Assembly (NCBI GenBank): GCA_030390025.1
Contig: CM059432.1
Span: 99,946,001 to 100,010,000, forward strand
Reading direction: 5' to 3'
DNA length: 64,000 bases
Source: Squalus acanthias
Lineage: Eukaryota
Shown here in pieces: positions 12,086 to 49,280 of the stretch. Positions within the stretch are counted from its first letter, which is position 1. Every line of letters starts with the position of its first letter. The notes beneath the pieces are model-generated. The model made no database searches and was not told the origin of the DNA. It saw only the letters and a list, made by a program, of their open reading frames with translations. The translations under genes and the position numbers were made by a program.

Positions 12086-12155
12086 TGTTTGGTGTGAAAA
12101 TAACTATTTACAAAATGACCAACATAGCTTTCACCGTTAGAAAGAAAATTATAAT

Positions 12156-12847
12156 GGCCCAGATATTCCGATCCCTATGGGTGAGTACGCGCTGTGTACC
12201 CACCCATAGGGTTATCGGAAATGCCGGTATCAGGCATGCACAGCGCATGCGCTGAAAACTGGCATTTCCGATCTGTCAAGAATGGTCTTGACATATCCTT
12301 CGGCTGCCCTGGAGGAGGGCCTCTGCAAGCGGATAGTTCCGCTTTTTGGAGACCCTCCGCCCGCAGAAAACCCTTACAATTCTTACGCCAGGATAAGAGT
12401 TGAAAAAAGTAAAAAAATAATTTTTTTCATTGATTTATCATTGAAAAATAATTTGAAAAATGGTAAGTTTATTTTTAGCCCCGTAAAAAACTTTAATTAT
12501 TTTTTTCAAAAAATTAAATTTTTGTTTAAAATACTTAATTTATTGTAATTTCAAGTCATTTTCAAAATGTGATGTCTTTTTTTATTTAAAGTTTTACTAT
12601 GTTTTTTCATTGATCTCCATTTATATATTTGACAGGTCTTCCTGTGATTGGCTCCCCATGGCCCACGTGATCCCAGGGACGCTGCGAACTACATGCGCCT
12701 CTGGGATACGTGGGCCCTGCGCATTTCAAGTTTGGTGAGGCCCAGGAGCGGAAGTGTGTGCGTCTGGGAGCCCTCAGGTAAGGGCACAGATTTTTCCATA
12801 TCGCAGTCCTCTACCAGCAGGAGGCCTGTGATCGGGAAATACGGGCC
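12156..12847. mobile_element. Harbinger-type MITE
   Basis: Imperfect TIRs GGCCCAGATATTCCGATC / GATCGGGAAATACGGGCC; 3-bp TSD AAT on both sides. Confidence 0.8.
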
Positions 12848-24290: not shown

Positions 24291-25649
24291 ATTGAGTTTC
24301 CTGCCTGAACCTGGCCAGAATCACTGTCCTGGCTAGCGGACGGGAGAGGGATTTCGAACAGCAGGAGGTCACCACCGGATACCTGAGGGAACGATCCCCG
24401 GCACTGAGGTAGGTCGTTGGGGTGGTGGTGTCATTTAAAAAATTACACATTGCTGGGCCTCTTCTAGCACTGGATCCTTCTGACAGCAGCTTTCCCTGGC
24501 GTTGTCAGCACTGTGCAAGACTCATGCGGTCTGGAGTTCAAGTTGTGTCAGGGTCCAAATTCCATAGAATTACATTGAATATACAGCACAGAAAAAGGCC
24601 ATTCGGCCCAACTAGTCTGTGCTGGTGTTCATACTCCACACAAATCTCCACCCATTCTATCTACCTCATGTCACCAAGGGGGAGAAATTCAGTATCGCCC
24701 CGTTTGGGGTACAATTATCAGCCGGGCGCAAAGTTTAGTGCCTGGCGATAATTATCGCCTCCGACTGCAAACTTGGCTTTTATCACCCCTGGAGGTGATT
24801 GGAGCGCTAAATCAGGCGCTGCACACCTGTCTTAAGGCGCAAAGGCCGAGGAGCGAGACGCTACCTCAGAGTGCGGGCGAAGCTCAGGTGATGTAACTCA
24901 GCAATGGAACACAGACACACTGGCACCAGTTCTTAAAGGGGAGGGTCGATCTTGCTCTCCAGCCACACCCTGCTCATTGCAGGCTTGATACTCGTCGTGG
25001 AGAGACCTGTGCCTGAAATCTTCAGCCAAGGACTATGGAGAGGGTGAGAGAACGAGCTCAGCGCTTCATCGAGCGGGCCTTGGAGGTTATGGTTGGCGCG
25101 GTGGAGCGCCGAAAAGCTATACTGTATCCTCAGAGTGGCAGGAGGCCATTGCCGCGCGACTACAGAAGAGTGTGGAGGGAGGTGGCTCAGCACGCCTCCT
25201 CCAGGAGCATGGTGCCCAGGACCCATACGCAATGTCGCAAAAAGTTCAACGACCTCACTCGGGTCGTCAGGGTGAGTGGCTGTTTTTCAATACCTCTCCA
25301 TCCCTCCATCTCAACCTCACTCTATGGCCAGAGAGTCTTAAAACCCCAATTCCCAGCACTCATCCAAGACCTATGGCCATCTCATAAAACACACACGCAC
25401 ATTCCACACCTTGCATACATTAAGGGCTTTTCAACTATGGGAGGCACATCAGGCAAGACCATGACTGTATATTTACTCAGACGCCGTCCTTTTTCTTGCA
25501 GGCCAAGCTATCTCACAACAGTAGACAGCAGCAACGGACGGGTGGAGGGTGGCCTCAGCTGCAACCCCTCAGCGATCTTGAGGCGCGCGTCCACAGGATT
25601 GTGGCAAGCCCTGTGATCGGTCCCGTCACCCCTGGAGAGGCCGACCCCG

Positions 25650-27249
25650 TGTAGAATTCGCAATTATCGCGATTTCATTTTAATAAGGAGAAAACACAAA
25701 GTTTCGTTCAAAACAGCTTTTATTTCAGCGGAATGCTGTCAGGTTTAAATTGGACACAAGCAGCCTGTAAAATGGCCGCCGCACCGCGTGACAGAACATT
25801 CTAGACTTTTCAGCAGGCAGACAAGATGGCGTTCCAATAAACATTTTTGCAAGATCGATAACGATTCAGCACAGTGAAGACAATACACAGGACATTATGG
25901 GTTTACAGTATAAACATCGATACTGGAATCGGTCTCCCAGGTACAAAGGAAAGCCATCAAGGGCCCATCCAAAGGACATTAATATGTAAACTCCCAACGG
26001 CTCTACGATGAGAGAGCCGTTAGCAGGTAGTTATACAGGACACTTGGAAGCCCCAAACCCCTCCAGGGGGAACACCGACCGATTTAACAATGGGAGAAAT
26101 ATTAACAGGTACTCAAACATTCAGGAGTAGCCCCGAAACCCATTAAGGACAGAGATCACCCATACAGGACATTTTGGGCGCCAAACCTTAAACAAAAGAA
26201 TGGACATTGTAGTTGGGCGGGAAACGGAAGAACTGTGCACTATAATTGCAGGCCCCAAACCGTCCATTCTCTCTCTGGCCTCTTGCTCTTGCTCTTGCCT
26301 CGTGTTCTTGACTCTTGCCGCTTGTTGCTGTTATCATCGTGGCTGCTCCTGTGTAAAAGACTGTTGCAAAGACCTATGTTGGTAGCTGGCAGCGGAACCG
26401 AAGGCCCGGGATGAGATGAGATGAGATGAGATGAGAGGAGAAGAGAAGAAGACCTTATCCATCGCCACGGTCAGTAGATCCCGACCGCGCCTGTAGGTCG
26501 ATCAGCCAAGTCTTCTCGACAGGAAGTTTTCTTCTTTAACAAGACATATTGCATCAATGATAACTGGACTGTGTAAACACATCGTATCAGTGATATTGAC
26601 AACGGTGCTCCACGATTAAACTTTGAAGCCCACCAACAGAGGTCTTCACCACAGCGGACGGTCCAGCCGACTAGCCGAGCAGCAGAAGCAGTAAACAAGT
26701 GGGACCAGGAGATCTCCTGACCAACACGTGGGTGCTGCGGTGAAAAACATCCGATCAGCTATTCGGGATTTCTCCGAGTTATTACGAGTGGTGAGCATGA
26801 GTCTCGAGATCCTACGAAGCTAGTTTTAGGATAGATATTGATAGGGGAGGGTTTAAAGATTAAGGATATTTGTAATGTGTGCCCTATTTACGTTGTGCTG
26901 GTCGTTCCTCGTTTCCCTAAGAGTGATTATAACCGTTTGTAAGATTGTACTGTCATTAATCTGTGCATATGACATGTATTTCATAATTTTAAGTATCATG
27001 CAATAAAGATTTTCCATTTCGTACCGTTCAAACCAAGTCTACATGAGTTTTATCTCCATTACTGCTCTCGCATCTAAGTCCAGTGTCTAGAACCGTAAGG
27101 GAGAGTGATTCGAACCACTCACAGGGGTGTCTAGTGTTCCCAGACTGGCTGGAGACCAGGCCTAGACCCGCACTGACATACAGGCTGCACAGAGCCGCGT
27201 GAATCTCACAGGCTACGAGACACGCAGGGTCAGGAGAGAATCCCTTACA
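25650..27249 (+). repeat. 5' LTR (1600 bp, TGTAG...CTTACA)
   Basis: Direct repeat of 36628-38227 at constant offset 10978; no differences seen by eye. Confidence 0.97.
26215..26270 (+). promoter_or_regulatory. Candidate LTR core promoter: GC box, TATA-like element and Inr
   Basis: GGGCGG 26215-26220, TATAAT 26241-26246, CCATTCT (YYANWYY) with A at 26266. Confidence 0.55.
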
Positions 27250-27253
27250 GAAA

Positions 27254-29065
27254 ATGGCGACCGCGGCAGGACACTGGCAGCGAGAGGGTAGTGTGTTAGA
27301 TTTTGGAATGACTGTACGAACTGTGATGCAGGAAAAGATAGCGGATTACGTATTTGGAAAGGTTAATCTAACGAAAAAGTGGATAAGCGAATTGTTAGCG
27401 GATAAGAGCCCACTAGAGGCAGCTGAAAGGTGGACGGATAGTAAGGAGCATAAAAAGGCAGTTGAGAAAGCAGTCTGGCTTATGTGCTACAAAAGGCAGG
27501 TTCAGATTTCAAACCAGACCAATACAGCGCTAACCGCTCGAATCAAGCATCTAGAGGAGGAAATGGAGGAGAAGGTTTCTGGAGGGGAGGCGCTCATTAA
27601 GAGTTTAAATGAGTTACGCCAGGAAAGCCAGGAAGTCTCCAGTTACCTTAAAACAAGGGTAGAGTATCTCGAGTGCCAGATCACTGAAGCAAAATTAAAC
27701 GAGAGTAGGATGAAGGAAAGATGTAACCGTCAAGCTGCCCAGATAAGAACTCAAGAAGAGAGCTTAATGGGGGTTAGGTCGGCGTATAAGTTGGCCCTTG
27801 AGGATAAGTTTCAGGGAGCCGACCATAGCGCCTGCGAAAAAGAGATAGAGAGTCTCAAAAAGGCCGTGAACAATGCGAACGGCATGGTGTGCCTTATTAA
27901 TCCGTCGGCACGCCAGCCGCTAGTAAATGAGAGATTTAGAAATTCCCCACCAAGTAAAGCAGAAGAAGTAGTAGCCAGTGCGCCCTCCGCGCCACCCAGC
28001 TATTCAGAAACCTGGGTTAGGGAGGAAGCAACGGAAGAAGCAAAAGAGCCCGTTGAAAAAGAGGTAGAAAAGGGATCGTTGTATCCAGTAACGGGGATTA
28101 AAAGGGGCCCAAGCAGAAACGGTGGGGAAGAACCGGGGGATCTCCTCGGACAGCTGGTGTTGCCTCACAGTTCACATCAGCTGAGGGCCATGATAAACCA
28201 CGTAAGGAAGCTGACCGAGATAGACGACCCTTCCGTACATTTCAGGGAAGTTGAGCAAGCCGCAGCCATCAACGGCTGCGATGATGGGGAGACAGCAAAA
28301 ATGCTGCTGTTCTCATTAGATAGCTCGGTCCTTCAGTGTCTCTCAGGCGATAGCAAGAGGGGTAATAAAAGTTATGAGGAATTGAAAAATGAGGTCCTAG
28401 AAGTAGTGGGAGCGAACGACGGAGGTCCGTTTGCTAGAGTGGGACAGACAGTGCAGATGGAGGGAGAACCCCCGAAGGTTTTTGCCGACAGGCTGTGGCC
28501 AGTATATGAGCGCAGCTGTCTAGGTGCGCCCGAGCGCGAAGATGTGGAAGGCGCCGCTTTAATTCATTGGCTTAGGTGCATAATAGCCAACAGTTTACCA
28601 GCCGTTAGAGAGCAGGCAAAAGCCTGGTTCGATCCCAATGACCTCAACCTTACGGAAGAGTCGGTCTTGAATCGACTCACGTTAGGTTATCGTAATATAA
28701 GGGGTATGACGACACGTCCCTTTAAGGGAAGAGTACATGAGGTACGACCCGCAGCCCCGGCTCAAAAGGAGTGGCATCAGGAGGGTAATCGCGCCCCACA
28801 GGCAAGTCATGCCTGTTACGGGTGTGGGAAGACAGGGCACTGGCGCAAGCACTGCAGGAACCCTTGGAAGGATTCCAAGGATAAAAATCCCGCGGTCCGA
28901 ACCCAGGCGCCTGTCCCGGCTAAGGAAGCAAAGGCACCCACCTCTCCCGAAGACCTCGAAGCAGTGTTAGGAGTCATGCGCAAGATGGTTTTGAATGCGC
29001 GTGGACAGGTGGCGGTCGCAACCGGCCCCGTAGGTGCCGCAGGACCGTCTAATAGTGCCCCATGA
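27254..29065 (+). CDS. gag: Gag polyprotein (603 aa)
   Basis: Intact ORF after PBS; N-terminal coiled coil, PSAPPSY late domain, capsid-like helical region, CCHC knuckle CYGCGKTGHWRKHC. Confidence 0.92.
   Translation: MATAAGHWQREGSVLDFGMTVRTVMQEKIADYVFGKVNLTKKWISELLADKSPLEAAERWTDSKEHKKAVEKAVWLMCYKRQVQISNQTNTALTARIKHLEEEMEEKVSGGEALIKSLNELRQESQEVSSYLKTRVEYLECQITEAKLNESRMKERCNRQAAQIRTQEESLMGVRSAYKLALEDKFQGADHSACEKEIESLKKAVNNANGMVCLINPSARQPLVNERFRNSPPSKAEEVVASAPSAPPSYSETWVREEATEEAKEPVEKEVEKGSLYPVTGIKRGPSRNGGEEPGDLLGQLVLPHSSHQLRAMINHVRKLTEIDDPSVHFREVEQAAAINGCDDGETAKMLLFSLDSSVLQCLSGDSKRGNKSYEELKNEVLEVVGANDGGPFARVGQTVQMEGEPPKVFADRLWPVYERSCLGAPEREDVEGAALIHWLRCIIANSLPAVREQAKAWFDPNDLNLTEESVLNRLTLGYRNIRGMTTRPFKGRVHEVRPAAPAQKEWHQEGNRAPQASHACYGCGKTGHWRKHCRNPWKDSKDKNPAVRTQAPVPAKEAKAPTSPEDLEAVLGVMRKMVLNARGQVAVATGPVGAAGPSNSAP
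27255..27272 (+). promoter_or_regulatory. Primer-binding site, tRNA-Arg(UCG)
   Basis: TGGCGACCGCGGCAGGAC, 5 nt after the LTR end, complementary to the vertebrate tRNA-Arg(UCG) 3' end as I recall it (...GUCCUGCCGCGGUCGCCA). Confidence 0.85.
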
Positions 29066-31618
29066 CTAGAACCAGCACAGCCCGTCTACCTGTGTCCGCT
29101 CAGCTATGATGCGTGGAGGCGACCTGTGGTGGAGATGGAGGTAGAGAAACAAAAGGGCAGTTATTTGTTGGACACGGGAGCTTCTTGCACCATAATCCAT
29201 ACAGATGACCCTTTTGACTCGCCGCTATCTACCAAGGTCCCATTCACGCTAGCAGGGTTCACAGGGAAAGAACAGGCTGGCACGTTTTCCCTCCCGCTAT
29301 CCATTCGTTTAGGGACACTTCGCCTTAAGTGGAAGTGTATACTGATGGCATGGCAAAAGGGGGGTGGAAGAGGTATTCTCGGGTCCGATCTGCTAGCGGG
29401 ACACGGGATCCTCGTGGACCTCAGAAATCACTGTCTCTGGGGGGCTAAAGGTGAAAAAGGCGAGGTAATGGTAATTCAAGGGGAGGAAGAAACAGGGGTC
29501 CTGTGTACCGTACAGCCATCCGGAGGCTACGACCTCAGGCTTATGGTCGCAGATGTCCCAACGGACATGCAAACGTACGTGACAGATAATATGCACGCGT
29601 TTGCAACCCACAAGCACGATTGTGGGAGGGTGGTCGGGTTTGAGGTCAGCGTAGATGGGGACCCCATGACCCGACCCCAAAAGCAGTATAACTTCCCCAA
29701 AGAAGCAGAACCCGATATGGAGGCAGCAATGTCTTCCTTGGTGCAGCAGGGCGTGTTGAGGCCGATAGCCACACACGTGAACTCCCCATTATGGCCGGTT
29801 AGGAAGCCGGATAATTCGTGGAGAGCCACGGTGGACTACAGAGTCCTTAACAGTAACATCCCCGCCTGCGCGCCCACAGTAGCAGCAGTTGCTGACCTAA
29901 TAGGGAGCATCCCAGCGTCCGCGACCACGTTCACGGTGCTGGATATCTCGAACGGTTTTTGGTCCATCCCGCTGCGGCGAGAGGACCAGTACAAGTTTGC
30001 CTTTACGTTTAAAGGGCAACAGTACACGTGGAACTGCTTGCCACAGGGTTTCCACAATAGCCCCAGTATTTTTCACCAGTGTATGGCAGGAAGTTTAAAG
30101 GAGTTTAGTCAGCCCAATCAGATAGTACAGTATGTGGATGATTTGCTCCTATTTACGGACTCAAGGGAGGAGCACGGACCACTACTGGACGAGTTATTGG
30201 AGCTGTTAGCGAGAAAGGGTTTTAAAGTAAACCCAAAGAAAGCACGTATCGGTCAGCAGGAAGTAAAATTCCTGGGACTGACCCTACGCGCTGGGGAAAG
30301 AGCCATAGACAAAGCAAGGAGGGAGTCGGTGCAAGAATTACCGATTCCCAACAACGTAAGGGGTGTGAGGTCCTTCTTGGGACTGACCGGTTACTGCAGG
30401 GATTTTATCGAGGATTATGCGGCCACAGCGGCGCCGCTCCTCCGACTCCTCCATAAGGGAGTAGAGTGGCTTTGGGACGAGGGCTGCCAAGCAGCCTTCG
30501 AGAAGTTAAAAAGGGATCTGCAGACCGCGCCAGCCTTAGGGGCCATAGATGGGGGGAAGGAGTTTTTCCTGGAGGTAGCTGCCAGCGGAGACAGCTTAAG
30601 CGCCGTGCTGCTCCAAGAGCGTCACGGCAAGCTGAGGCCGGTTGTCTATTCATCCAGGGTATTAACGGATGTGGAGAGAAGTTTTTCCAATTGCGAAAGG
30701 CACCTTTTAGCCACGCATTGGGCTGTGAAAAGATCAGCGATCTTCACAGGGCTCTCTCCCATCACTCTCCTCACACATCACACACCAACTAAGATGCTTC
30801 TGGATGGGAGGATTAAAGACGGGACCGTAAGCAGCGCACGCATTGCGCGTTGGACCCTTCTTCTCTCCCAGTTGGACATCAGAGTAAAAGGTCTTTGCGA
30901 GCCCAGGCTTGCGGCCAATTTGGTATACCCCGGTACAGCCCACCGGTGTTCGGTGGAGGGGGTGTGGGACGTCAACATAGGTTTACGGGCCGGGATACAT
31001 CCCACTGGGCGCGAGATTTATGTTGATGGGTCTAGCACAGTATCTGCTGGCGAGCGACTCACAGGGTGTGGAGTTTATGACCCTGCGGCAGACCTTGCCC
31101 TGGCGATCAAGCTCCCTAGCACCATGAGCGCGCAGCAGGCTGAGCTGTCTGCCGTGGTGTACGTGGTAACCCACCCAGACATTTTCCCAACCCCATACAC
31201 GATTTGCTCGGACAGTATGTTCACCTGCAATTCGTGTACGGAATACCTGGCCATTTGGTCCCGCCGTGGATACACCTCCGCGGACGGGCGACCTTTAACG
31301 GTAAAGCCCTTGCTGGAAAAGATCTTAGCAGCAGCAGTAGGGGAGGAAGGGGAGATTTTCATCCATAAGGTGAAAGCTCACTCCTCCACAGAGCCCCGTG
31401 GGGAGGGCAACCGGCAGGCGGATGCGCTAGCCAGGGAGGGTGCCCGCGACGGTACTTTCTGGAACCCCTATAGAACCGGACCCATAGCAGCGGTCCGAGG
31501 TGGGGACGGGAATACCGGGAACACCAGGGTAGCATTGCCCCTAGACCTTAAGACCGTCCAAGCCCAGGATCCCGCCCTAAAAGCAGTCCTAAAAACGATT
31601 GCTGAGGGGGGCAGGTAG
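29066..31618 (+). CDS. pol: Pol part 1: protease, RT, tether (degenerate RNase H), RNase H; in frame with gag behind one UGA
   Basis: LLDTGAS; LDISNGFW, LPQGF, YVDD (30131); tether FFLEVAAS...SAVLLQ...YSSR; RNase H IYVDGS...SAQQAEL...SDS...VKAH...GNRQADALA. Confidence 0.95.
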   Translation, partial: LEPAQPVYLCPLSYDAWRRPVVEMEVEKQKGSYLLDTGASCTIIHTDDPFDSPLSTKVPFTLAGFTGKEQAGTFSLPLSIRLGTLRLKWKCILMAWQKGGGRGILGSDLLAGHGILVDLRNHCLWGAKGEKGEVMVIQGEEETGVLCTVQPSGGYDLRLMVADVPTDMQTYVTDNMHAFATHKHDCGRVVGFEVSVDGDPMTRPQKQYNFPKEAEPDMEAAMSSLVQQGVLRPIATHVNSPLWPVRKPDNSWRATVDYRVLNSNIPACAPTVAAVADLIGSIPASATTFTVLDISNGFWSIPLRREDQYKFAFTFKGQQYTWNCLPQGFHNSPSIFHQCMAGSLKEFSQPNQIVQYVDDLLLFTDSREEHGPLLDELLELLARKGFKVNPKKARIGQQEVKFLGLTLRAGERAIDKARRESVQELPIPNNVRGVRSFLGLTGYCRDFIEDYAATAAPLLRLLHKGVEWLWDEGCQAAFEKLKRDLQTAPALGAIDGGKEFFLEVAASGDSLSAVLLQERHGKLRPVVYSSRVLTDVERSFSNCERHLLATHWAVKRSAIFTGLSPITLLTHHTPTKMLLDGRIKDGTVSSARIARWTLLLSQLDIRVKGLCEPRLAANLVYPGTAHRCSVEGVWDVNIGLRAGIHPTGREIYVDGSSTVSAGERLTGCGVYDPAADLALAIKLPSTMSAQQAELSAVVYVVTHPDIFPTPYTICSDSMFTCNSCTEYLAIWSRRGYTSADGRPLTVKPLLEKILAAAVGEEGEIFIHKVKAHSSTEPRGEGNRQADALAREGARDGTFWNPYRTGPIAAVRGGDGNTGNTRVALPLDLKTVQAQDPALKAVLKTIAEGGR

Positions 31619-33567
31619 AAGGTCCGTACAGTACGGCAACCCTCTCAGTTAAGGAAGGCATGCTGTTCCGCGAGGAGCAGTGGGTTGTGCCGCAGCAGCA
31701 CAGGAGGGAATTCCTCCAGTTGGCTCACGAGGGACCAGGGGCAGGGCACCCCGGGCCCGAGGTTACCTGGCAACGGGTAGAGCAAGCGGGATGGTGGCCA
31801 GGGCTCAGGGAACAAGTCCGCGAGTTCTGTGCAAACTGTCTTGTGTGCGCTGCAAACAACCCAGACCCCCAGAAAAGGAAGGTGCCCATGGGACACGTAA
31901 GAAGGGTAGAGGGACCATGGCAGTCGATACAGATCGACTATATAGGACCCCTGCCCACCACCCAGGGAGGTTATAAGTACTGCCTCGTCCTGGTGGATGT
32001 GTTTTCCAAGTGGGTGGAAGCCTTCCCTTGTCGAACAGCTACGGCACTGGGTACAGCAAAAATCTTGGTCCGGGAAGTGTTCTCGCGGTGGGGACTCCCC
32101 CGTTTCGTGGAGTCAGACCAAGGGAGTCATTTCACCGGCCAGGTGATGCAGAACACCCTCATGCTTTTGGGCATTGAAGGGAAGTGGCACGTAGCACACA
32201 ATCCCCAGTCATCCGGGATTGTTGAACGTATGAACCGGACCCTGAAGGAGAAATTGAGGAAAGAGACTAGGAACTCGCCCCAAAAATGGGCGGAAGTTCT
32301 GCCTTTAGTCCTCATGGGGGTCCGGGCCAGTCAGTCAAAAAGTACGGGGTACTCCCCGCACGAGGTAATGACCGGCAGGCTCATGCGAACCCCCACCCAT
32401 GTGCTAGCCCCGGTGCTCACTGAGGGTCAGCTCCAGGAGATAAGCAGGGACAAGTTCGCCCAGACTCTCTTGGAGCGCCTGAAGCAAGTTTATGAGCAGG
32501 CGGCTGGGAACATGGGAAGGCAGCACCAGGGCAATCGCTTGTTGCTGGAACCCCGCAAAACGCGGGAGTGGGAAGTAGGAGACCAGGTCATGGTCAGAAA
32601 CTACGCCAGAGTAGGGAGTCTGGAACCACTGTATATGGGACCCTACAACATTGTAGACAAGGCAAGTCCCATGGTTTACGCCGTAAAAGTACCTCGGCGC
32701 ACTAAGTGGTTCCACATAAACCAATGTAAACTGTACCAGCCGGGTGCGCAAGGGAAAACTACAGGGGTAAATCCCGCCAATGGGAAAACACAGCCCCAGG
32801 TAGGACCACAAGGCACACAGGCAGGCGTAGCAGCTTGCATCAGGGGAAGGGACATCCCGGACGATCATGCAGCGTTTTTCTGGAGTTGGGGGTTAGATGA
32901 CGAGGACCCCAGGGTACCCTGGTCAGATGAGGATAGTGCAGATGAGCATAGTGATGATGACGGGTGGTTCCTGAGGAACGGTCTGGGAGGATTGGGGCCG
33001 ATAGGTAGAGATCCATACGGGGTGGACACACAAGCTGCAGGTCCCGACAGCAGGAGGAAGGAGCTAGAGGAGGCCGGGCCAGCCGCTATGTGGTTCCCAG
33101 AGGTGTGGCCGCCCGCTTTGAACGTCCAGTCCTCAGGGGAGGCAGAGTTCGCGAGTGAAGGGCCGCCTGCTGGGCCGAGCAGGGCGGGGCCCCGAACTGC
33201 CAGCCCCGAGGTTAGGGAGGCGGAGTCAGCGGAGGCGGGGCTGGCGCCTGTGATGGAACCCCAGGTCATCCCGTTGAAGGTCTCGGGACCCGGTCCGTCC
33301 GTCACGGAGCCCCCGCCCATAGCAATTCCCCGTAGGTCAAGCAGAGTACCCCAGCCCAGGAAGATGTGGTCAGGTCCACAGGCTGCCCCAGGGCGTAAGT
33401 TTCAGGTTAAGATAACCCGGGTAGAGACAGGCCACATCGAAGCAGTAACAGGCTGCGGCAGATCAGAGGAAAGGGTCAGCGCAGCAACAGGCTGCGGCAG
33501 ATCAGAGGGAAGGGTCAGTGCCCTCCCACCGTCGGGAAGAGCTCGCAGCAGCCTTCTCAGGATTTAA
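31612..33567 (+). CDS. pol: Pol part 2: integrase (HHCC, DD35E, GPY/F) with long C-terminal extension; -1 frame relative to part 1
   Basis: AHEG...GHPG...CLVC; IDYIGP, SDQGSHF, GIVERMNRTLK; YMGPY; open reading continues upstream to the G6 run at 31606-31611. Confidence 0.93.
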   Translation, partial: QVEGPYSTATLSVKEGMLFREEQWVVPQQHRREFLQLAHEGPGAGHPGPEVTWQRVEQAGWWPGLREQVREFCANCLVCAANNPDPQKRKVPMGHVRRVEGPWQSIQIDYIGPLPTTQGGYKYCLVLVDVFSKWVEAFPCRTATALGTAKILVREVFSRWGLPRFVESDQGSHFTGQVMQNTLMLLGIEGKWHVAHNPQSSGIVERMNRTLKEKLRKETRNSPQKWAEVLPLVLMGVRASQSKSTGYSPHEVMTGRLMRTPTHVLAPVLTEGQLQEISRDKFAQTLLERLKQVYEQAAGNMGRQHQGNRLLLEPRKTREWEVGDQVMVRNYARVGSLEPLYMGPYNIVDKASPMVYAVKVPRRTKWFHINQCKLYQPGAQGKTTGVNPANGKTQPQVGPQGTQAGVAACIRGRDIPDDHAAFFWSWGLDDEDPRVPWSDEDSADEHSDDDGWFLRNGLGGLGPIGRDPYGVDTQAAGPDSRRKELEEAGPAAMWFPEVWPPALNVQSSGEAEFASEGPPAGPSRAGPRTASPEVREAESAEAGLAPVMEPQVIPLKVSGPGPSVTEPPPIAIPRRSSRVPQPRKMWSGPQAAPGRKFQVKITRVETGHIEAVTGCGRSEERVSAATGCGRSEGRVSALPPSGRARSSLLRI

Positions 33568-33818
33568 AGGGGCCGCCCTGAGAACGGGCGGCATTGTAAA
33601 GTTATTAGTTTAAGGTTTTAAGTTTTAGTTTAAAGTTTTAAGTAGTTTTAATAAGGTTAAGTTTGTAGTGTTTTTAACAGAAAACGATAAAATGATGGGA
33701 GTTTTAAGGCTAGGTTTAGAGGAAGTCTATTCAGCAAACGTTGAAGTTTACGTGAGGCGAGGTCAGGGGACCCGCTCACCCTTCACAAAAGCCAGAGACT
33801 TTTTGCGAGGCTGGCTAC

Positions 33819-33838
33819 CTCATTCTATCTGATCACAG
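33819..33838 (+). promoter_or_regulatory. Candidate env splice acceptor
   Basis: CTCATTCTATCTGATCACAG| ending 13 nt before the env ATG (AGGATGG). Confidence 0.6.
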
Positions 33839-33851
33839 GAACCAAGGAAGG

Positions 33852-36203
33852 ATGGAACGACTTCTAGTTTTGCTCGTGGCAATCGGATGTGGATTGGCCT
33901 ATCGGGGCCTCACCAAGGATGTCATGGTGTTTGGATGTTCCGGGGACACGGCCCCCATCGCGGTGGATGGGACCGGAAGACGGAAGGCAGAAGGGACCAG
34001 CACCTATTTCCACAAGGGAAGGTGGCCAGGATGGCTGGGAACGAACTCAACGGAGTATTCCAGCACATCGGGGTTCGCCTATAAAGAGACTTCTTTAATG
34101 TGCCCCAAAGTACGGATCATCGCACCCAGGATCAGCGTCACCGTCGGCAAACGGATTTGTTTGACCTGCAGTGGGAATGTCCCATTGAGCCGATGGTGGT
34201 GGCTGCGAAAGCTGAGCAAAACTATGAGGAACTCTTCGGTTGAGTGGGAGCGACTGGGTAATAATACCCATCGGACAATTACGGGGACAGATGGACAAGT
34301 GAAAGTCTGTTGGGACAAATGGTGGGAACCGGATGAGGGGATTTATGTTTGTATGTGGGGGTCAAAGTACGTTTGCCCCAAAGGCATCTCCATATTCTTT
34401 ATTAACCAGTGGCAGGATAACGGACAGGGGATGAGGTGGGATGCGAGCACCAGGGGGTGCGGAGCCCCATACTCTCCGATCCCAGTAAATGCCACTGAGC
34501 TCATTACGCGCCCACGCAAAGCCCCGCCCACGATTCCGGTAGTTCTAACTGAGGAAGAAGGGTGCCCTAAAACTAGTAAGGGACCCGGGAACGGTTTGGT
34601 ACTGGTCCCCACAGACCAGATACTATTTCAGGGAGTGCATTACGCGGTGGCCTCGGTGATTTTAAATCTCACTGAGGTACGGTTACCAGAGTGGTGCCCC
34701 AAAAAGACGGAACAGTTGTACCAGGTCCTGTTGACCAAGATGTTCAGGCAATTTTACGAGTTTGATTTTGCAGAAATTGATAAGACAAGTTTATACACCG
34801 CACCGCAGGAAGTTTTGGACCAAGTAGGGAGGCAAAGAAGGGGTTTGGTGAACGATGCGTTCACTGCTTTTAACACAGGGACATCTGTGGTCAACGCTCT
34901 AGACAGTGTGGAGCTGCAGACCCAGATTAATGGTTTAAAAACACAGTTAAAGGATATTCTTACAGATGAGAATAAAGTGGTAGGGTCGGGTCTGCACGAG
35001 GACCAAGCCATGACACTCCACTTAAAGGAAATCATAGCAGAGCTGGAGAAACATGCGCGTACGGTAAATGCCCTGATTAGGGAAGATCGGAATGCATCCG
35101 ATCAAGCTGCGCAGAACGAGGTGTGCGTGCTTTACGGGGCGTGGTTACTGGGCGAGGGCCGCAGTAATTTGGAGGATTTAAAACAAGGTTTGGTTCCGTC
35201 CTGGATAAGTAACAAACACCTGCGGGCGCTCCACCCTTTTCAGAACGCATTAAGTCCGTGCCAGCTCAGGCTAGCTTCAGAAGCTTACCCAGTCCCCGTG
35301 GACTGCGGACGTTCAAACCATACTATTATGGGAATAGTATTACGCATGCCGGTTTTGGGCAACACAGCAAAGCCCGCCCCGGTGTATCGGGTAGAGAACG
35401 TTGGTGTCATTCAGGGGGGAGCCCACATTCGTTATGCAGCGGTTCCACCTTACGTCATCCGCTGGGAGCAAACGATGACAGGTACAGATCTCTCTGGTTG
35501 TCGTGGCAGGGGAGCACACATAATACTGTGCCCCCAGCACTTGAATGCCTTTTTAACACCACAGTGCGGGTTCAGAACGGCTGGCGCCAAGTCCATGAAT
35601 TGCACCATGGAGGCAATGGCACAAGATCATGTGCCTCCGCAGGTAGCATACATCGGGGGTGGAACATATTGTGTTACCACTGCAGCGCAACACTACCAGC
35701 ATGGAAACCGTAGCCGGTGTCCGGTGAGTGACAGCAGTTTCTGTTTTAAACCCAGGGCTGAAGTTCAAGTAGCACAACAGCGAATTATCCCAATCCCTGA
35801 ACCATCCACTGTTCATCTCACAGTAAAAGAGAATTTTACCGACTTGCAGCGATTTGTCGCACATTTTGGGTACCTCATTCCCCCTCTCCCTGAGCATTTA
35901 ACCAAACTTCTGAAAGCCGTCGCGGTTTCACAGAAGCATTTTTATACGTTAGAGCAGAAAACTGTCGAGATAGGTACAGACATTTTGGACATAGTGGTTC
36001 CACCGTGGTGGAATCTGTTCACGAATATTGAAGTGCCCTCATGGGTCAGAATAGCCTCCCACATTTTAGTCGTCTGTCAAGTGTTTATTGTAGTATACCT
36101 TTTGTTCATACATTGTAAAAGAGACAAGCGCCTCACCAAGCATGAGAACACGGGAGAGTGGCGAGAACGTTACGTGCGCGTGCACGATGAGAGCGCAGTG
36201 TAA
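33852..36203 (+). CDS. env: Envelope glycoprotein (783 aa): signal peptide, Ig-like domain, F-type fusion protein, TM anchor
   Basis: MERLLVLLVAIGCGLA signal; C106/W116/DEGIYVC167 Ig motif; furin site RQRR (34830-34841) followed by hydrophobic GLVNDAFTAF and heptad repeat; Cys-rich region; TM ILVVCQVFIVVYLLFI; 28-aa tail with YVRV. Confidence 0.93.
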   Translation: MERLLVLLVAIGCGLAYRGLTKDVMVFGCSGDTAPIAVDGTGRRKAEGTSTYFHKGRWPGWLGTNSTEYSSTSGFAYKETSLMCPKVRIIAPRISVTVGKRICLTCSGNVPLSRWWWLRKLSKTMRNSSVEWERLGNNTHRTITGTDGQVKVCWDKWWEPDEGIYVCMWGSKYVCPKGISIFFINQWQDNGQGMRWDASTRGCGAPYSPIPVNATELITRPRKAPPTIPVVLTEEEGCPKTSKGPGNGLVLVPTDQILFQGVHYAVASVILNLTEVRLPEWCPKKTEQLYQVLLTKMFRQFYEFDFAEIDKTSLYTAPQEVLDQVGRQRRGLVNDAFTAFNTGTSVVNALDSVELQTQINGLKTQLKDILTDENKVVGSGLHEDQAMTLHLKEIIAELEKHARTVNALIREDRNASDQAAQNEVCVLYGAWLLGEGRSNLEDLKQGLVPSWISNKHLRALHPFQNALSPCQLRLASEAYPVPVDCGRSNHTIMGIVLRMPVLGNTAKPAPVYRVENVGVIQGGAHIRYAAVPPYVIRWEQTMTGTDLSGCRGRGAHIILCPQHLNAFLTPQCGFRTAGAKSMNCTMEAMAQDHVPPQVAYIGGGTYCVTTAAQHYQHGNRSRCPVSDSSFCFKPRAEVQVAQQRIIPIPEPSTVHLTVKENFTDLQRFVAHFGYLIPPLPEHLTKLLKAVAVSQKHFYTLEQKTVEIGTDILDIVVPPWWNLFTNIEVPSWVRIASHILVVCQVFIVVYLLFIHCKRDKRLTKHENTGEWRERYVRVHDESAV

Positions 36204-36615
36204 TGGGAAAATGGCGTCACTCCCGCTCGCCACGTGCGCCGCGGAAGTTTGTACTCATTGTAAATACGTTGGAAACTCGACATGTTTAAGAGTCGGGATT
36301 TGTTTATTTTGGTGATGGTGTTGATTGTTTGGTTTTTGGGTTTTGTTTTTCCTTCCCTTGAATAAAAGACAAATATACAGGTGATGCGTGAGGTATCGGC
36401 CTGGTTACGCCGGGAAGGAAAACAAATGGTGTAAGTTTAAGGGCAAATGATGCCTACGGTGATATAAAATGTGATTTTTCTTGGGAAATGAGGACGACAC
36501 AGAGACCCTAGTGAAGTTAAAATTTATGGGATTAATTTACTGGATTCGGAGTGAAATCGAGATAAGATTGCTCACCACTGAGATTTTTGATACGATAAGC
36601 GGAGTTATTCGCATC

Positions 36616-36626
36616 AACAGGAGGGA
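36616..36626 (+). other. Polypurine tract
   Basis: AACAGGAGGGA, one base before the 3' LTR TG. Confidence 0.75.
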
Positions 36627-36627
36627 C

Positions 36628-38227
36628 TGTAGAATTCGCAATTATCGCGATTTCATTTTAATAAGGAGAAAACACAAAGTTTCGTTCAAAACAGCTTTTA
36701 TTTCAGCGGAATGCTGTCAGGTTTAAATTGGACACAAGCAGCCTGTAAAATGGCCGCCGCACCGCGTGACAGAACATTCTAGACTTTTCAGCAGGCAGAC
36801 AAGATGGCGTTCCAATAAACATTTTTGCAAGATCGATAACGATTCAGCACAGTGAAGACAATACACAGGACATTATGGGTTTACAGTATAAACATCGATA
36901 CTGGAATCGGTCTCCCAGGTACAAAGGAAAGCCATCAAGGGCCCATCCAAAGGACATTAATATGTAAACTCCCAACGGCTCTACGATGAGAGAGCCGTTA
37001 GCAGGTAGTTATACAGGACACTTGGAAGCCCCAAACCCCTCCAGGGGGAACACCGACCGATTTAACAATGGGAGAAATATTAACAGGTACTCAAACATTC
37101 AGGAGTAGCCCCGAAACCCATTAAGGACAGAGATCACCCATACAGGACATTTTGGGCGCCAAACCTTAAACAAAAGAATGGACATTGTAGTTGGGCGGGA
37201 AACGGAAGAACTGTGCACTATAATTGCAGGCCCCAAACCGTCCATTCTCTCTCTGGCCTCTTGCTCTTGCTCTTGCCTCGTGTTCTTGACTCTTGCCGCT
37301 TGTTGCTGTTATCATCGTGGCTGCTCCTGTGTAAAAGACTGTTGCAAAGACCTATGTTGGTAGCTGGCAGCGGAACCGAAGGCCCGGGATGAGATGAGAT
37401 GAGATGAGATGAGAGGAGAAGAGAAGAAGACCTTATCCATCGCCACGGTCAGTAGATCCCGACCGCGCCTGTAGGTCGATCAGCCAAGTCTTCTCGACAG
37501 GAAGTTTTCTTCTTTAACAAGACATATTGCATCAATGATAACTGGACTGTGTAAACACATCGTATCAGTGATATTGACAACGGTGCTCCACGATTAAACT
37601 TTGAAGCCCACCAACAGAGGTCTTCACCACAGCGGACGGTCCAGCCGACTAGCCGAGCAGCAGAAGCAGTAAACAAGTGGGACCAGGAGATCTCCTGACC
37701 AACACGTGGGTGCTGCGGTGAAAAACATCCGATCAGCTATTCGGGATTTCTCCGAGTTATTACGAGTGGTGAGCATGAGTCTCGAGATCCTACGAAGCTA
37801 GTTTTAGGATAGATATTGATAGGGGAGGGTTTAAAGATTAAGGATATTTGTAATGTGTGCCCTATTTACGTTGTGCTGGTCGTTCCTCGTTTCCCTAAGA
37901 GTGATTATAACCGTTTGTAAGATTGTACTGTCATTAATCTGTGCATATGACATGTATTTCATAATTTTAAGTATCATGCAATAAAGATTTTCCATTTCGT
38001 ACCGTTCAAACCAAGTCTACATGAGTTTTATCTCCATTACTGCTCTCGCATCTAAGTCCAGTGTCTAGAACCGTAAGGGAGAGTGATTCGAACCACTCAC
38101 AGGGGTGTCTAGTGTTCCCAGACTGGCTGGAGACCAGGCCTAGACCCGCACTGACATACAGGCTGCACAGAGCCGCGTGAATCTCACAGGCTACGAGACA
38201 CGCAGGGTCAGGAGAGAATCCCTTACA
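36628..38227 (+). repeat. 3' LTR (1600 bp), with candidate poly(A) signal AATAAA at 37980-37985
   Basis: Direct repeat of 5' LTR; ends CTTACA followed by TSD CCCG. Confidence 0.97.
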
Positions 38228-39694
38228 CCCGTTCGGGACAGCAATGGTAAGGTCATCAGCTTTCTCTCCTCTCTCATTCCACTTGTCCCTCACAACACTA
38301 GCCTTTGACACTTTCAATCCATCTTATTAAATCGCACCACTCCTTCCTCCCTTACTGCCCCCCTGTCCTCACGCTAAAGTCACTCTTGTACCTCCCTGCT
38401 TTCAGTTGGTCATTCACCAACTGAGGAGACGGGCCCTCAAGCTGCCAGTGGGATCGAAGCCACAGGCGAGGAGGAAGAGGAAGCTGGAGCATCAGCGCCA
38501 CCCTCTCCCGAGGAAGCCCATGCCCACACTGGGAACACGTCTTCCCTGGAGGGGAGCAGGGGGGAAGAGTCTGATGAGGGTGAAGCTCCGGGACCCAGCA
38601 GGCTGCAGCAACATGATGGGGGTAGGGAAGTTTCGGGGCCTTCTCCCCGGACGGAGAGTAGGCCAGCGAGTCCTGCTGCACTGGACACAGAGGAGGAGCG
38701 GCTCATCGCTAAAATGAACACCCAGGCGGTGGACATGCACACTCAGCTCATGGGTGCAGTGGGAAGGGTGCCCGAAAGCATTGATGCACTGGCAAGGAGT
38801 GTGGAGCACTTCGCTGTAGCACAGGCGGATGCCACGCAAATGCTTAGTGCTGCAATTCAGTCACTGACTGCCGTGATCTAATCTCAGACTGGTCTCATGC
38901 AGACTCAGATTGAGGCCACACAAGCACTGACTGCTGCCATCGTCGCTGGTTTGGCCACATTGCCCCGGGGCTCTCACCGCGCCGCAGCAGGCCAGCAATC
39001 TGTGCTTCAGCAGATTGCTCCGGATGCTGAGGTGCTGCCCCGTGGGAGTGCCAGTGTGTCAGTCGAGCAGGGAGTTGCTGTCGTCTCTCAAGATGACAGC
39101 ATTCCTGCTGCCACCACTGTCACTTCCCCATTGCACTTGCCACCGCCTGTAGCCCAGACTGCTGCCGCCCATGCAGAGTTGGTGCAGTCTGCAGCCGGGC
39201 CCTCCAGGCCCAGAGCTGGTCGAGGGCGTCCTTCAAGGGCATCTGTAGTCTCAGGATCTGACATTCAGCAGCCTTCCACCAGCCTAGCTGCAGCCACTGG
39301 GGCCCCATTATGGAGGAGCAGTAGGGTGGGAAGGGGGCAAGTGGGCAAGGGAAGGAGATCACCCTCGAAGGGCAAAAAGTAGGAGGTCTCAGGAAATGTT
39401 GGGAATGTTTTTATTAAAGGCCGAGGTTCATGTGATAACTTTTGTTTAGTGTTTTGGCCATTATCTCCAGGTTGTGAGAACCAGTTATGTTAATGAATGA
39501 TTTTTTGTGTTTGTTTCTATTAGTTTGTCATGAATAAATGACACACACAGAGTTTGTAAAATAAAAAAGTTGTTGTATTCAAAATGTACATGTTTGGCCT
39601 TTGGAATCATTGCTGCCTTGGCCGGCTATAGGGGTTGCGGGTTGCTTTCCATCATGTTGTTCTCCATGCCAGAAGCCATTTCCTGAGAAGGGAC

Positions 39695-40805
39695 CTAGAA
39701 GCTGCTTGTTATCAGTCGTTGACGGACGGCCCTTGCAGTTTCAACATTGTGGGCCTCCCTCCCGCCTTGGTGCTGCTGCTGATCATCCTCCTCCTCGTCC
39801 TCCTCCTCTTCCTCCTCCTCCTCCTCCGGTGGTGCACCAAGAATTGGTGGCATTGGCTGGGTCCTGAGGATTGCCAGGTTATGAAGAATGCAGCAAACAA
39901 CTATGAAGAGGGAGACTCGCTCAGGCAAGTACTGCAGGGCTCCTCCTGAGTGGTCCAGACAGCGGAACCATTGCTTGAGCACACTGATCGTCTGCTCAAT
40001 GATGTTCCTGGTGGCGAGATGGCTCTCATTGTACCGCAGCTCAGCAGGAGTGTTGGGGTTACGGAGCAGTGTCATCAGCCAGGTGCAGAGTGGATTACCC
40101 TTGTCCCTGAGGAGCCAACCATTTGGCTGATGTGGTGCCTGGAAAAGTTCTGGCACACCAGTCTGGCGCAGGATGAAAGCATCGTGGCTGCTGCCAGGAT
40201 AGCGGGCATTGACAGCGAGTATCAGCTGTCTGTGGTCACACAGACCAACTGGACGTTTAAGGAGTGGAACCCCTTGCGGTTTCGGAAAACCTCCGCATTC
40301 TCATGTGGTGCCTGCAATGCCACATGCGTGCAGTCAATGGCGCCCTGCACCATGGGGAAGCCCGCTATCCTCGCAAAGCCCAATGCGCGTTCATGTTGTT
40401 TGGCCCGGGTCATCGGGACAGAGATGTACTGGCGTCTCCTTTTATAGAGGGTATTTGTGACCTCCCAGATAAAGCAATGGACTGCGAACTGGGAGATATT
40501 GGCGATGTCCCCAGTAGCTGCTTGAAAGGAGCTGGTGGCATAAAAATTCAGAGCCACTGTGACCTTCACTGCCACCGACAGAGACGTCCTGGTCCTCAGT
40601 TGAGGCTACAGATCTGGCTGCAGCAGGTGGCAGAGCTCAGTGACCACCTCCTTGCTGAAGCGCAGCCTGCGCAAACACTGCTCCTCAGACAAATGAATAT
40701 AGGAGAATTGTTCCCTCTGGCCATGTTTGCCACTCTCTCTCTGCGTCTCTGATGCCTCCGATTCTGCAGGCGCAGGATGACGCCCTGAATCAGTGCAGCC
40801 CCCAT
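39695..40805 (-). pseudogene. Harbinger DDE transposase (HARBI1-like), frameshifted
   Basis: Fragments [82 protein letters not shown]. Confidence 0.9.
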
Positions 40806-46487: not shown

Positions 46488-49280
46488 AAGTGTAATTGAT
46501 TATCACATGGTTTGTCACATGGTTTAGTATGCGCATGCTCAGTTTGCTCTGACCTAATAAAGCAAGCACATGGACTAGCAACTCATCATGTTTCTATCCT
46601 TCATTTGTTGTACACACATACATTATATTTTGGTGATGAGGATGGGATCCCAAAGCCATTTTTAGGGATCATGGAAGGACACAGTGTGCAACCTTCGAGT
46701 GGACAAGCTTAATGTGAATTTGTGACACCTAAACTGAATTTTTGTGATGTTTTACCGTTAATGCTGATGCAGAATCATCTGTGCTTCACCTTCGCGTGTA
46801 TGTATACACAGCAACAGCGGTGTTGATTCTCACAGGTACACAGGTAGCGTGCTGAGTCTCTGTTTAACGGATTGGGACAATCATGGCCGCGCCTATGGGA
46901 TTCATCGGAAGCCTCGGCACATGTGACCGAGCTCGCGAATCATTCAGTTCTTACATTGAGCGGATGGAGGTGTTTTTTAGTGCCAATACCATTATTGAGA
47001 CTGAAGGTGCAGATGAGAATGTTAAAACTCAAAATAAAGTAATTCGTGAATGGAAGAAAGCAATTTTCCTAACGGAGATCAGGCCAGATGTCTATGGAAC
47101 GTTGAGAAACCTACTCGCGCCAGGGAAAGGGAAGGATGCGGCGTTTGAAGACATTGTCGAAAAACTCGAGGACCATTTTGACCCAATGCTGTTAGAAATA
47201 GCAGAGAGCTATAAGTTTGGTAGCAGAAACCAAAAACAAAGTAAAACCATCAGTGAGTACATTGTAGCTCTTAAGAACCTGTCTTTGCATTGTAACTTGG
47301 GCACATTTTTGAATCGTGTGTTGTGAGATAAGTTTGTGTGTGGACTTGTGGATGAGCGCACACAGTTCAAGTTACTGAACACTCTGAACCTAACATTTGA
47401 CATCGCATGCAAAATTGCCCTACCTATGGAGATCGCATCTAAGAATGCTAGGGAGCTCCGTCCAACTCAAGTGACTAGTGCAGCTGAGGTCTACAGTCAG
47501 AAAGCCACCACCAAATCTAAAGCTGTGAGACCGAGTCAAAAGCATGTCGGTGAGAGCAGTTCAGTGAAATGTTATCGCTGCAATGGAAATCACTCACCAC
47601 AGTCCTGCCAATATAGAAATGTAGAAATGCAAAGTATTTTCACTACCAGAAGCAAGGCCATATTTCAACAGGTGCAGAGCTAGATCTAAAGCAGGAAGTA
47701 AGAACCATTCTAGTGGCAATGAAAGCAGTGACAACAAAAGGGAGGAGTTCACAATATTGAAGTGAATACACCTGATGTTGAAGAACTAGGCATCTACAGT
47801 ATCTATGCCACTAGCGGCAACGCAAGCAGTCGTGAGAAAGACTTCCAGACAAATCTTTTGATCAATGACCAATATATTAATATGTGTATCAACACGGCGG
47901 CGGACTGCTCTATCATGAGTAAGGACACATATGAGAGTAAGTTTAATCAAATATCACTTACAAAGAGTACCATAGAGTTAAAAACCTATTCCGGAGAAAT
48001 CCTAGAGACATGTGGACAAATGGAATGTACAGTTCAACACAATGGCCAGTCAGTAAAGCTGCCTATTATTGTAGCAAGCTACAACAACAGGCCAACTCTC
48101 ATGGGCAAAGACTAGTTGAGAAAGTTAAAACTAGACTGGAAAAACATCTTCAGTGTAGATGCTTGAAAAAAGCGACTCTACACAATGCTGAACAAGTATG
48201 AAAGCATGTTCACAGACAGTTATGAGGGCATCACTGGGTATGACGCGCATATCCACATCAATGTCTATTGTAAGGCAAGGCCGGTCCCCTATGCGTTGAA
48301 AATTCAGGTGGAGGAAGAACTAGTGAAGCTCAGAGAGAACGGAGTGCTCGTAAAAACTGACAAAAGTGAATGGCCAATTGTGGTAGAGCCCAAAGCAGAC
48401 AAAACTGTACGCTTGTGCGGTGACTACAAAGTTACTGTCAACCAAGCAGTTGACGATGAGCAGTACCCGTTACCTACATCCCAAGATTTGTATGCAGCAC
48501 TCTCTGGGTCAAAGGTTTTCCCCAAGCTTGACCTGTCGCATGCTTACACTCAGCTAAATGTTGACAAAGAGAGTCAACAGTATCTCACCATCAACACACA
48601 CAAGGGACTGTATTCATGCACCAAGCTGCCGTATGGTGTAAAGTCCTCCCCAAAAATCTTCCAGGCTGCAATGGATAAGATTTTGCAAGGAGTTCAAAAA
48701 TGTTTATGCAATCAAGACGATGTGCTGATGACAACAAGCAGTGAGAAAGAAAATTTAAAAGTGTTAGCTATAGTGTTTCAAAGGTTGAATGCTCACAATG
48801 TCAAATTGAAAAGGAGCAAATGTACTTTTGTGCAGCCTGAGGTTGTGTACCTTGGTCTGAAAGTTGATGCAAATGGCTTGCAACCAGTGAAGGAAAAGGT
48901 TGATGCTGTCAGCAATGCTCCAAAGCCACAGAACGTGTCTGAGTTAAGATCTTTCCTTGGAATGGTCCAGTACTATTCACGTTTCTTACCTGAATTAGCG
49001 ACCATGCACGAGCTCCTCAAGAAGGATGTCCAATGAAAGAGGATGAAAGCGCAACAGGAAGCTTACGACGCTTGTAAGAGAAGTCACTATGGCGAGTGCT
49101 TCCTTTTTAATTTGCGCGTAGTTTCTTTTGCTCGTTTGCTCTTTGTGAGAGTTTGCGATGCGAACGCGATTGGTTTCTCTTGGCCGTCATCCATTACGTG
49201 GCTTATGACAGCTCCCATGCCGTAGCTGGAAGCATCACACGCTAACTTAAGCTCACGCTCTGTGTCATAGTGCACAAGTC
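46488..49280 (+). mobile_element. Decayed Ty3/Gypsy (Mag-like) LTR retrotransposon, 3'-truncated
   Basis: Short LTR ~46488-46627 with AATAAA; PBS TGGTGATGAGGATGGGAT (46631, tRNA-Ser(GCU)-like with CpG decay); gag (CYRCNGNH...C), protease, RT (RLCGDYK, KLDLSHAY, LPYG) with stops and frameshifts. Confidence 0.88.

Follow-up and report, generated by a model that had tools for sequence, protein, structure and literature searches.

The stretch of 64,000 nucleotides of contig CM059432.1 considered here (hereafter the window, in which positions are counted from the first letter) harbors a provirus at 25650-38227, i.e., a copy of an endogenous retrovirus (ERV) with gag, pol and env genes, all of the features of which lie in the forward orientation. 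The long terminal repeats (LTRs), delineated by LTR self-comparison, are 1,600 bp in length with TG...CA ends and occupy positions 25650..27249 and 36628..38227; they displayed 0 differences over 1,600 bp, and the exact identity ended precisely at the TG...CA boundaries. Direct comparison of both flanks revealed a target site duplication (TSD), CCCG, at 25646..25649 and 38228..38231. A chance origin of this structure is excluded, because two identical 1.6-kb repeats bracket the gag-pol-env region. The positions of a TATA-like word (26928) and of AATAAA (27002) within the 5' LTR suggest a long U3. A short polypurine tract (PPT; 36619..36626) was found 5' of the 3' LTR, and the primer binding site (PBS; 27255..27272) is separated from the 5' LTR by 5 bases (spacer and PBS together, 27250-27272) and matches the 3' end plus CCA of the host tRNA-Arg(TCG) at 18 of 18 bases. 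The genes of this tRNA number in the hundreds in the host genome (461 pattern matches at ≤1 mismatch), and, together with tRNA-Ser(GCT) genes, they form long tandem arrays with a unit of ~1,623 bp on contig C26 (~39.0-42.2 Mb); it is tRNA-Arg(TCG) that the virus would use as primer. The initial annotation, in which the LTRs were compared by eye, had described a very young LTR-gag-pol-env-LTR element with a CCCG duplication, PBS and PPT, and the alignment of the LTRs that it proposed, as well as the other comparisons, bore out this description in full.

The gag gene (27254..29065), read as an open frame from the ATG at 27254, codes for 603 aa with an N-terminal coiled-coil-like region and one CCHC knuckle, as judged from the sequence. 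The product had no match in the Pfam search and a weak one (E=1e-4) to Gag of the snakehead retrovirus (SnRV). The true gag start may be a Met downstream of the ATG at 27254, the first in-frame one, which overlaps the PBS; the word comprising the PBS and gag start differed in one of 20 chromosome-scale copies of the element, which were sampled from the top matches to its reverse transcriptase (RT) region. The gene ends with TGA-CTAG, a leaky stop context, kept in all 20 copies, and pol continues beyond the TGA in the same frame as gag. The first pol frame (29066..31618) contains a protease (PR), RT with the YVDD motif, a tether (degenerate RNase H) and a second RNase H (RH), recognized as Pfam RVP, RVT_1, RT_RNaseH/RT_RNaseH_2 and RNase_H, so that the retrovirus-type tether and second RNase H noticed earlier are confirmed; its best matches among PDB sequences were RT-RH of the murine leukemia virus (MLV)/xenotropic MLV-related virus (XMRV) type and foamy Pol. 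The distance from the protease to the YxDD motif is 320 aa. The second frame (31606..33567, Pfam) carries the integrase (IN) with H2C2, rve and an SH3-like C-terminus, followed by a tail of ~265 aa (32773-33567), which is acidic and proline-rich and includes a 39-bp repeat at 33442-33519. The two frames are separated by a frameshift between RNase H and integrase (31606..31618, from open reading frames (ORFs) and Pfam frames), due to which the integrase of the present copy, as assembled, is out of frame with the rest of pol. At nine of nine further RT-identical loci the break is missing and the pol frame is continuous, as it is in 16 of the 20 sampled copies; since the RT-identical loci read through this place, the break at ~31606-31618 is private to the present copy and reflects a new mutation or else an error of the assembly. 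Thus, the earlier notion of open gag and env with a single lesion in pol was correct. No extra ORF of the size of smc, an optional gene of lokiretroviruses, was present inside the element, and no frame of the size of the SnRV-type 3'ORF was found 3' of env.

The env gene (33852..36203, ATG at 33852) is an open frame of 783 aa, the product of which was studied using AlphaFold and Foldseek. The protein consists of an N-terminal arm, presumably preceded by a signal peptide, an F-type (class Ib) fusion body and a transmembrane anchor at residues ~730-760, and it has no CX6CC motif. A furin-type cleavage site, RQRR (residues 327-330; 34830..34841), followed by a putative fusion peptide, aligns with the basic site of SnRV Env. 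The Env body is predicted to fold like paramyxovirus F, a class Ib protein. The mean predicted local distance difference test (pLDDT) score of the model was 61.8, being high in the body and below 50 for most of the first 234 residues. Among PDB structures the model matched F of human parainfluenza virus 3, respiratory syncytial virus and henipavirus; the lowest E was 1.4e-10, 219 matches reached E≤0.001, and the upper ranks were filled by F proteins of paramyxo- and pneumoviruses. Among predicted viral structures it matched Env of walleye epsilonretroviruses (E=1.3e-9 and 7.8e-8) and of feline foamy virus (E=9.4e-5). These matches agree with the F-type Env proposed in the initial annotation. 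In comparisons with PDB sequences, the single Env sequence retrieved nothing under E=1, and the best match of the profile of Env homologues was foamy Env (E=0.0016); PF00523 of Pfam was matched neither by Env nor by 18 of its homologues. SnRV Env and a profile of 39 Env homologues aligned in collinear order along 339 columns (E=2e-5, with a probability of 77%). Env of SnRV and of walleye epsilonretroviruses (BFVD Q9WHI8, A4GTG3) appear to be F-type too, and no statement to this effect was found in the literature searched. According to PMC11468914, orthoretroviral Env belongs to class Ia and foamy Env together with F to class Ib, and F scaffolds can bear N-terminal receptor modules; the model of the present Env fits class Ib within a virus with orthoretrovirus-like gag-pol.

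The N-terminal arm of Env probably holds an immunoglobulin (Ig)-like domain, as suggested by modeling. A probable Ig V-like domain at residues ~83-186 (34098..34409) was indicated by a Pfam Ig_3 match below the cut-off (E=0.014), and the arm modeled alone yielded a low-confidence beta-sandwich (pLDDT 58.5) with TREM-1 as the best match (Z 7.0, root-mean-square deviation 2.9, 92 residues aligned), a Z under 8 being treated here as merely suggestive; Ig domains filled both match lists. An Ig-like N-terminal stretch also occurs in shark and frog Env homologues and possibly in SnRV, so the arm is probably a trait of the lineage and not unique to the present family.

That the host is an elasmobranch is well supported by sequence comparison: a sentrin-specific protease of a sawshark has its exons in collinear order at one locus of the host, with 75-92% identity, and the named Env sequences closest to that of the element are those of a skate and several sharks, in keeping with the cartilaginous fish suspected at the outset. 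A near-identical env was detected in 20 of the 24 public runs listed, from at least six organisms and 11 studies, and contigs of one organism cover pol at ~98.6-99.7%; the organisms carrying env may be closely related to one another, or else the virus may have passed between species. None of the 24 runs was on record as RNA, and the high LTR depth of one run, which is only presumed to be RNA, was left out of account. Public sawshark gene models join retroviral pieces to host genes, and two of them carry Env of the present family; these fusions are probably annotation artefacts.

The provirus belongs to a very large family. In the genome searched (3.71 Gb; pattern counts, at ≤1 mismatch, are lower bounds) we counted at least 2,918 LTR-PBS junctions, at least 1,857 copies of env, at least 1,069 of RT and at least 1,586 LTR starts of the present subtype, the genome-wide count having been suggested as a check of the initial annotation; a search with the RT region gave ~100% identity in 40 of 40 scored matches, of 2,444 candidates. 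After exclusion of four of the 20 sampled copies, in which LTR ends were not resolved, from the LTR and TSD counts, the LTR pairs were identical in seven of 16 copies and differed by 1-13 mismatches in the others, and 11 of the 16 had a 4-bp TSD, each of a different sequence. Distinct flanks and distinct 4-bp TSDs imply separate integrations. All three genes, gag, pol and env, were open in 14 of the 20 copies. For the present provirus, 0 LTR differences set the 95% upper bound of its age at ~0.4 million years (My) with the mammalian rate (PMC7947760) or ~4.3 My with an assumed shark rate (PMC4422223). At contig C3520, copies at 1495506 and 1506496 are 10,990 bp apart, which is the spacing of tandem proviruses with one common LTR.

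Selection was assessed on 19-30 open segments per gene, with those containing stops, indels or >8% mismatch excluded. The ratio of nonsynonymous to synonymous polymorphism (pN/pS) was 0.10 for the Env body, 0.22 for the Env arm, 0.09 for PR-RT-RH, 0.20 for gag and 0.29 for IN, and 0.68 for the pol tail, which is thus weakly constrained in comparison with IN. Variants found in two or more copies were distributed between synonymous and nonsynonymous as 60:1 in the Env F body, 15:2 in the Env arm and 13:0 in PR-RT-RH. These sequence data indicate strong purifying selection on env. In copies selected for having the same RT, synonymous diversity reached 0.047 in env, five times the value of 0.0095 for RT, a difference suggestive of recombination. 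Among 12 short copies, selected by LTR spacing, 10 shared one deletion corresponding to 29098-32772 of the window (from protease to integrase), while one of the other two had the same left breakpoint and the last one differed. In this pol-less sister class gag, the pol tail and env are kept open; the tail is retained perhaps for splicing signals of env. Maintenance of env by selection is generally taken to indicate reinfection, and classes devoid of pol depend on complementation in trans (mechanisms listed in PMC10435555). Of the features by which the same source defines invading ERVs, the present copy has identical LTRs and, due to the pol break, lacks a fully intact gag/pro/pol/env set. Present-day infectivity, which the initial annotation considered possible, is plausible for the family.

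Phylogenetic analysis was performed with reference Pols comprising two natural lokiretrovirus (lokiortervirus; Loki)-type sequences found by the Loki RT motif, 16 foamy-type loci, 20 gamma/delta/beta-type loci and SnRV. From a set of 121 sequences, nine were left out for their short RT. The SnRV reference agreed with the published SnRV row and was 99% identical to the 10,688-nt SnRV genome. The RT of the element is 31-32% identical to that of Loki, 33-38% to foamy, 34-39% to gamma-type and 44.8% to SnRV sequences, which makes SnRV the nearest of the named viruses, and 52-54% identical to frog and coelacanth proteins annotated as ‘NYNRIN-like’. In the maximum likelihood (ML) tree of RT plus tether (44 sequences, 414 columns), Retroviridae without Loki were recovered at 99.6/100 with the element inside and grouped with the frog and coelacanth ERVs (92/76); the RT-only ML tree (54 sequences) displayed the same split between Loki and Retroviridae (97.3/99), and both trees reproduced the published topology, in which Loki is sister to Retroviridae. 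The approximately unbiased (AU) test on RT plus tether rejected the grouping of the element with Loki (p=6e-5), with frogs and Loki (0.004) and with foamy viruses (0.021), as well as its position outside Loki plus Retroviridae (p=7e-5), and did not reject the grouping with frogs and SnRV (p=0.27). Features of Retroviridae are present throughout, i.e., the LTR-gag-pro-pol-env-LTR layout, PBS, PPT, dual RNase H and an RT inside the retrovirus clade, whereas the double RNase H and the RT position within the retrovirus plus Loki clade do not conform to Metaviridae (Ty3/Gypsy). A scan of viral contigs with the element RT and with a fish epsilon-like Pol revealed no relatives. Loki-type pol genes were observed in two contigs of a metagenome collection, presumably representing fish host DNA.

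With these data, the provirus is probably a recent member of a large young elasmobranch ERV family, which belongs to the early-branching ‘SnRV-like’ grade of Retroviridae (clade Huo) and has frog and coelacanth ERVs as its nearest relatives. SnRV resembles the element in the in-frame gag-stop-pol layout, coiled-coil Gag with one CCHC, dual RNase H, the RT motif LDISNGFWSI, a homologous Env body and a PBS starting with TGGCGA; the likeness of the coiled-coil Gag and of Env is weak but collinear. The primer of SnRV is reportedly tRNA-Arg. Differences from SnRV, apart from the RT identity given above and an IN identity of 30.6%, include the LTR length (1,600 bp vs 518 bp in SnRV), the lack of an SnRV-type 3'ORF, and shorter Env and cytoplasmic tail in the element. 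The frog and coelacanth ‘NYNRIN-like’ ERV proteins are the nearest non-shark Pols (~40% identity over PR-RT-RH), and frog Env homologues share the N-terminal Ig-like stretch with an overall Env identity of only ~20%. By eye, the toad Bbuf.ERVi.1/6 (PMC10435555) have RT motifs in common with the element; these toad ERVs stand outside the trees. All of these frog, toad and coelacanth relatives come from host classes other than that of the element.

Several observations weigh against this placement or limit its force. The AU test on RT alone was weaker (Loki 0.032, frogs plus Loki 0.076, foamy 0.31, frogs plus SnRV 0.60), so that it rejects direct sisterhood with Loki only. SnRV joined the wider clade of the element at just 82/74 in the RT tree and left it in the tree of RT plus tether; because the position of SnRV shifts between the trees, ‘SnRV-like’ designates a grade and not a proven clade. 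The integrase is 42.6% identical to that of Loki and 30.6% to that of SnRV, and the IN tree (calculated with CGIN1 not included) gave no resolved grouping; of the RT/RH/IN phylogeny proposed with the initial annotation, the RT and RT plus tether parts place the element in Retroviridae outside Loki, and the IN part yields no resolved placement. Loki is represented in the trees by just two sequences of the teleost type, Odin and ERV-L are absent, and beta/lenti-type sequences are thin. A direct BLASTP comparison of Env with SnRV Env was not significant (E=0.049), and the confidence of the two Env models (pLDDT 61.8 and 58.5) is moderate to low. Furthermore, the copies were picked for RT near-identity and for open indel-free segments, so the sample favors intact ones, and purifying selection could partly predate endogenization.

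The view that the element is a lokiretrovirus reaching into cartilaginous fishes, which was that of the initial annotation, has in its favor that lokiretroviruses (PMC7947760; PMC9040795) share with the element dual RNase H, an Env similar to F of Mononegavirales with a basic (RXKR-type) cleavage site and a related integrase, and that hosts of the nearest named Pol relatives also carry Loki. Tether and second RNase H are, however, common to all retroviruses, and their combination with F-like Env is not diagnostic for Loki, because foamy viruses have both (PMC11468914) and SnRV Env aligns with that of the element. The RT lies outside the Loki clade both in the trees and by the AU test, with two Loki-type RT references; the published Loki consensus Pols have CPFGYSNSP and YVDDIL/YVDDVL, whereas the element has PQGFHNSP and YVDDLL, neither of which occurs in 300 of the 318 pages of the Loki supplement (PMC7947760), and the Loki motif pattern had no exact match in the genome. 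The long PR-RT insert of Loki, in which the protease-to-YxDD distance is 712 aa, is also lacking, and the element Env has ~220 extra N-terminal residues relative to the two Loki Env sequences compared. Finally, Env relatives of the element occur in Scyliorhinus torazame and Chiloscyllium punctatum, both Loki-negative in the Loki survey, the supplement of which (PMC7947760) scored none of six chondrichthyan genomes as positive, in agreement with the initial annotation. Membership in Loki is accordingly highly improbable, and the supposed extension of the Loki host range falls with it. A foamy-like ERV of fish, or a Ty3/Gypsy element that has acquired env, is slightly less probable still: F-type Env is likewise known from foamy viruses (PMC11468914) and errantiviruses (10.1101/2023.10.26.564294), and RT alone leaves a foamy grouping unrejected, but RT plus tether speaks against foamy monophyly with the element, and hence against Spumaretrovirinae, as well as against a position outside Loki plus Retroviridae, the in-frame gag-pol and the CCHC knuckle are unlike those of spumaviruses (PMC2717909), and a second RNase H is atypical of Gypsy.

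Two other explanations concern rank and mode of spread. It is conceivable, though unlikely, that the element stands for a separate basal lineage within Retroviridae that has no name so far, made up of shark, frog and coelacanth ‘NYNRIN-like’ ERVs, which is not SnRV proper and is older than the split of foamy viruses and orthoretroviruses. In the tree of RT plus tether the branching point of its clade is deeper than those of foamy viruses, SnRV and class I/II, and the Loki-like integrase and the foamy Env match of the Env profile point the same way; yet these basal nodes are weak (49/66), the SnRV grouping is not rejected by the AU test, and both the layout and Env match SnRV. This alternative differs from the placement in the SnRV-like grade in rank and name only. 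A more improbable scenario is that the family spread intracellularly or by segmental duplication, env being a passenger, and is no longer mobile. The near-identical env in at least six organisms may reflect an older, finished burst in slowly evolving sharks, and some copies reside in satellites or tandem arrays; against this stand the separate integrations implied by the distinct flanks and TSDs, and the strongest constraint being on env, which is retained even in the pol-less class.

Under the SnRV-like reading, the life cycle of the virus may be outlined as follows. The LTR would drive genomic RNA, from which Gag would be made directly and Gag-Pol via UGA readthrough, the layout for which is observed. 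The host tRNA-Arg(TCG), with its observed complementarity to the PBS, would prime reverse transcription, and integrase would leave the 4-bp duplications seen in the copies. Env, probably translated from a spliced RNA, would be cleaved at the RQRR site to yield the two subunits of a fusogen with a predicted paramyxovirus F-like fold, the Ig-like N-terminal arm being the likeliest receptor-binding part. With the predicted body fold in common with foamy Env and paramyxo- and pneumovirus F (PMC11468914), the putative attachment modules differ: an N-terminal Ig-like domain in the element, an inserted receptor-binding domain in foamy viruses and a separate attachment protein in the viruses bearing F. 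The family would have been amplified mainly by repeated infection of germ-line cells by particles carrying Env, accompanied by recombination, and would also have mobilized the pol-less gag plus env class in trans. As assembled, the present copy could provide Gag, PR-RT-RH and Env and would need integrase from another copy.

The literature searched contained no account of this family and none of an F-type Env among SnRV-like retroviruses, with Repbase, Dfam and most subscription papers lying outside the search. SnRV-like ERVs have been recorded in sharks, coelacanth and amphibians (PMC4422223, PMC6001957, PMC4977317), the described shark ones being tens of millions of years old; elephant-shark CmiERV lineage I, for instance, was dated to ~75 My (PMC4422223), in contrast to the present shark family, which is young and very abundant (thousands of copies), with env under selection. 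What is new is a very large recent shark SnRV-like family, the class Ib Env of which probably has an Ig-like head and which includes a satellite class lacking pol. Its Env extends the occurrence of F-type fusogens beyond foamy viruses and Loki, so that ideas on how retroviral Env arose can be tested with intact natural genes; a caution also follows that F-like Env together with dual RNase H is no signature of Loki, and many frog and coelacanth ‘NYNRIN-like’ annotations represent retroviral Pol. An article on NYNRIN itself (PMC9447858) had no bearing on the present lineage. More tentatively, and with somewhat less than even chances, an orthoretrovirus-like lineage with Ig-headed class Ib Env may still be invading shark germ lines and be common to several species, F-type Env being ancestral in retroviruses. 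If so, this ancestral Env, with counterparts in SnRV, foamy viruses and Loki and F-like matches to Env of walleye epsilonretrovirus, was later replaced by the gamma-/beta-type one, contrary both to independent Env gain by Loki and canonical retroviruses and to a uniform class Ia orthoretroviral Env. The family would then be the first invading one among cartilaginous fishes, in none of 13 of which a 2023 survey listed invading ERVs (PMC10435555).

The provirus interrupts a multicopy Harbinger DNA transposon between parts of its Myb/SANT gene. One part lies upstream (25017..25616, forward; Pfam Myb_DNA-bind_5, E=1.2e-7) and another at 38378-39382 (forward), followed by a transposase remnant on the reverse strand (39695..40300; DDE_Tnp_4, E=5.6e-21); no Harbinger terminal repeats were found. 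A target preference for Harbinger was not supported, as the flanks of 16 other copies consist of various repeats and satellites. In contigs of four of four public runs the two flanks are joined at one site, as expected of uninterrupted copies of the host repeat; these joints were rejected as proof of insertional polymorphism, likewise a feature of invading ERVs, the longest bridging contig differing at 67 of 750 letters, i.e., representing a paralogous Harbinger copy. Another Harbinger-like frame is located near 60606-61106. Elsewhere the window contains decayed pieces of what appear, by their motifs, to be CR1-type long interspersed nuclear elements (2373-5805, 10471-12174, 51356-53094 and 61090-61548) and a gag-RT remnant, Gypsy-like by the same token, at 46868-49036.

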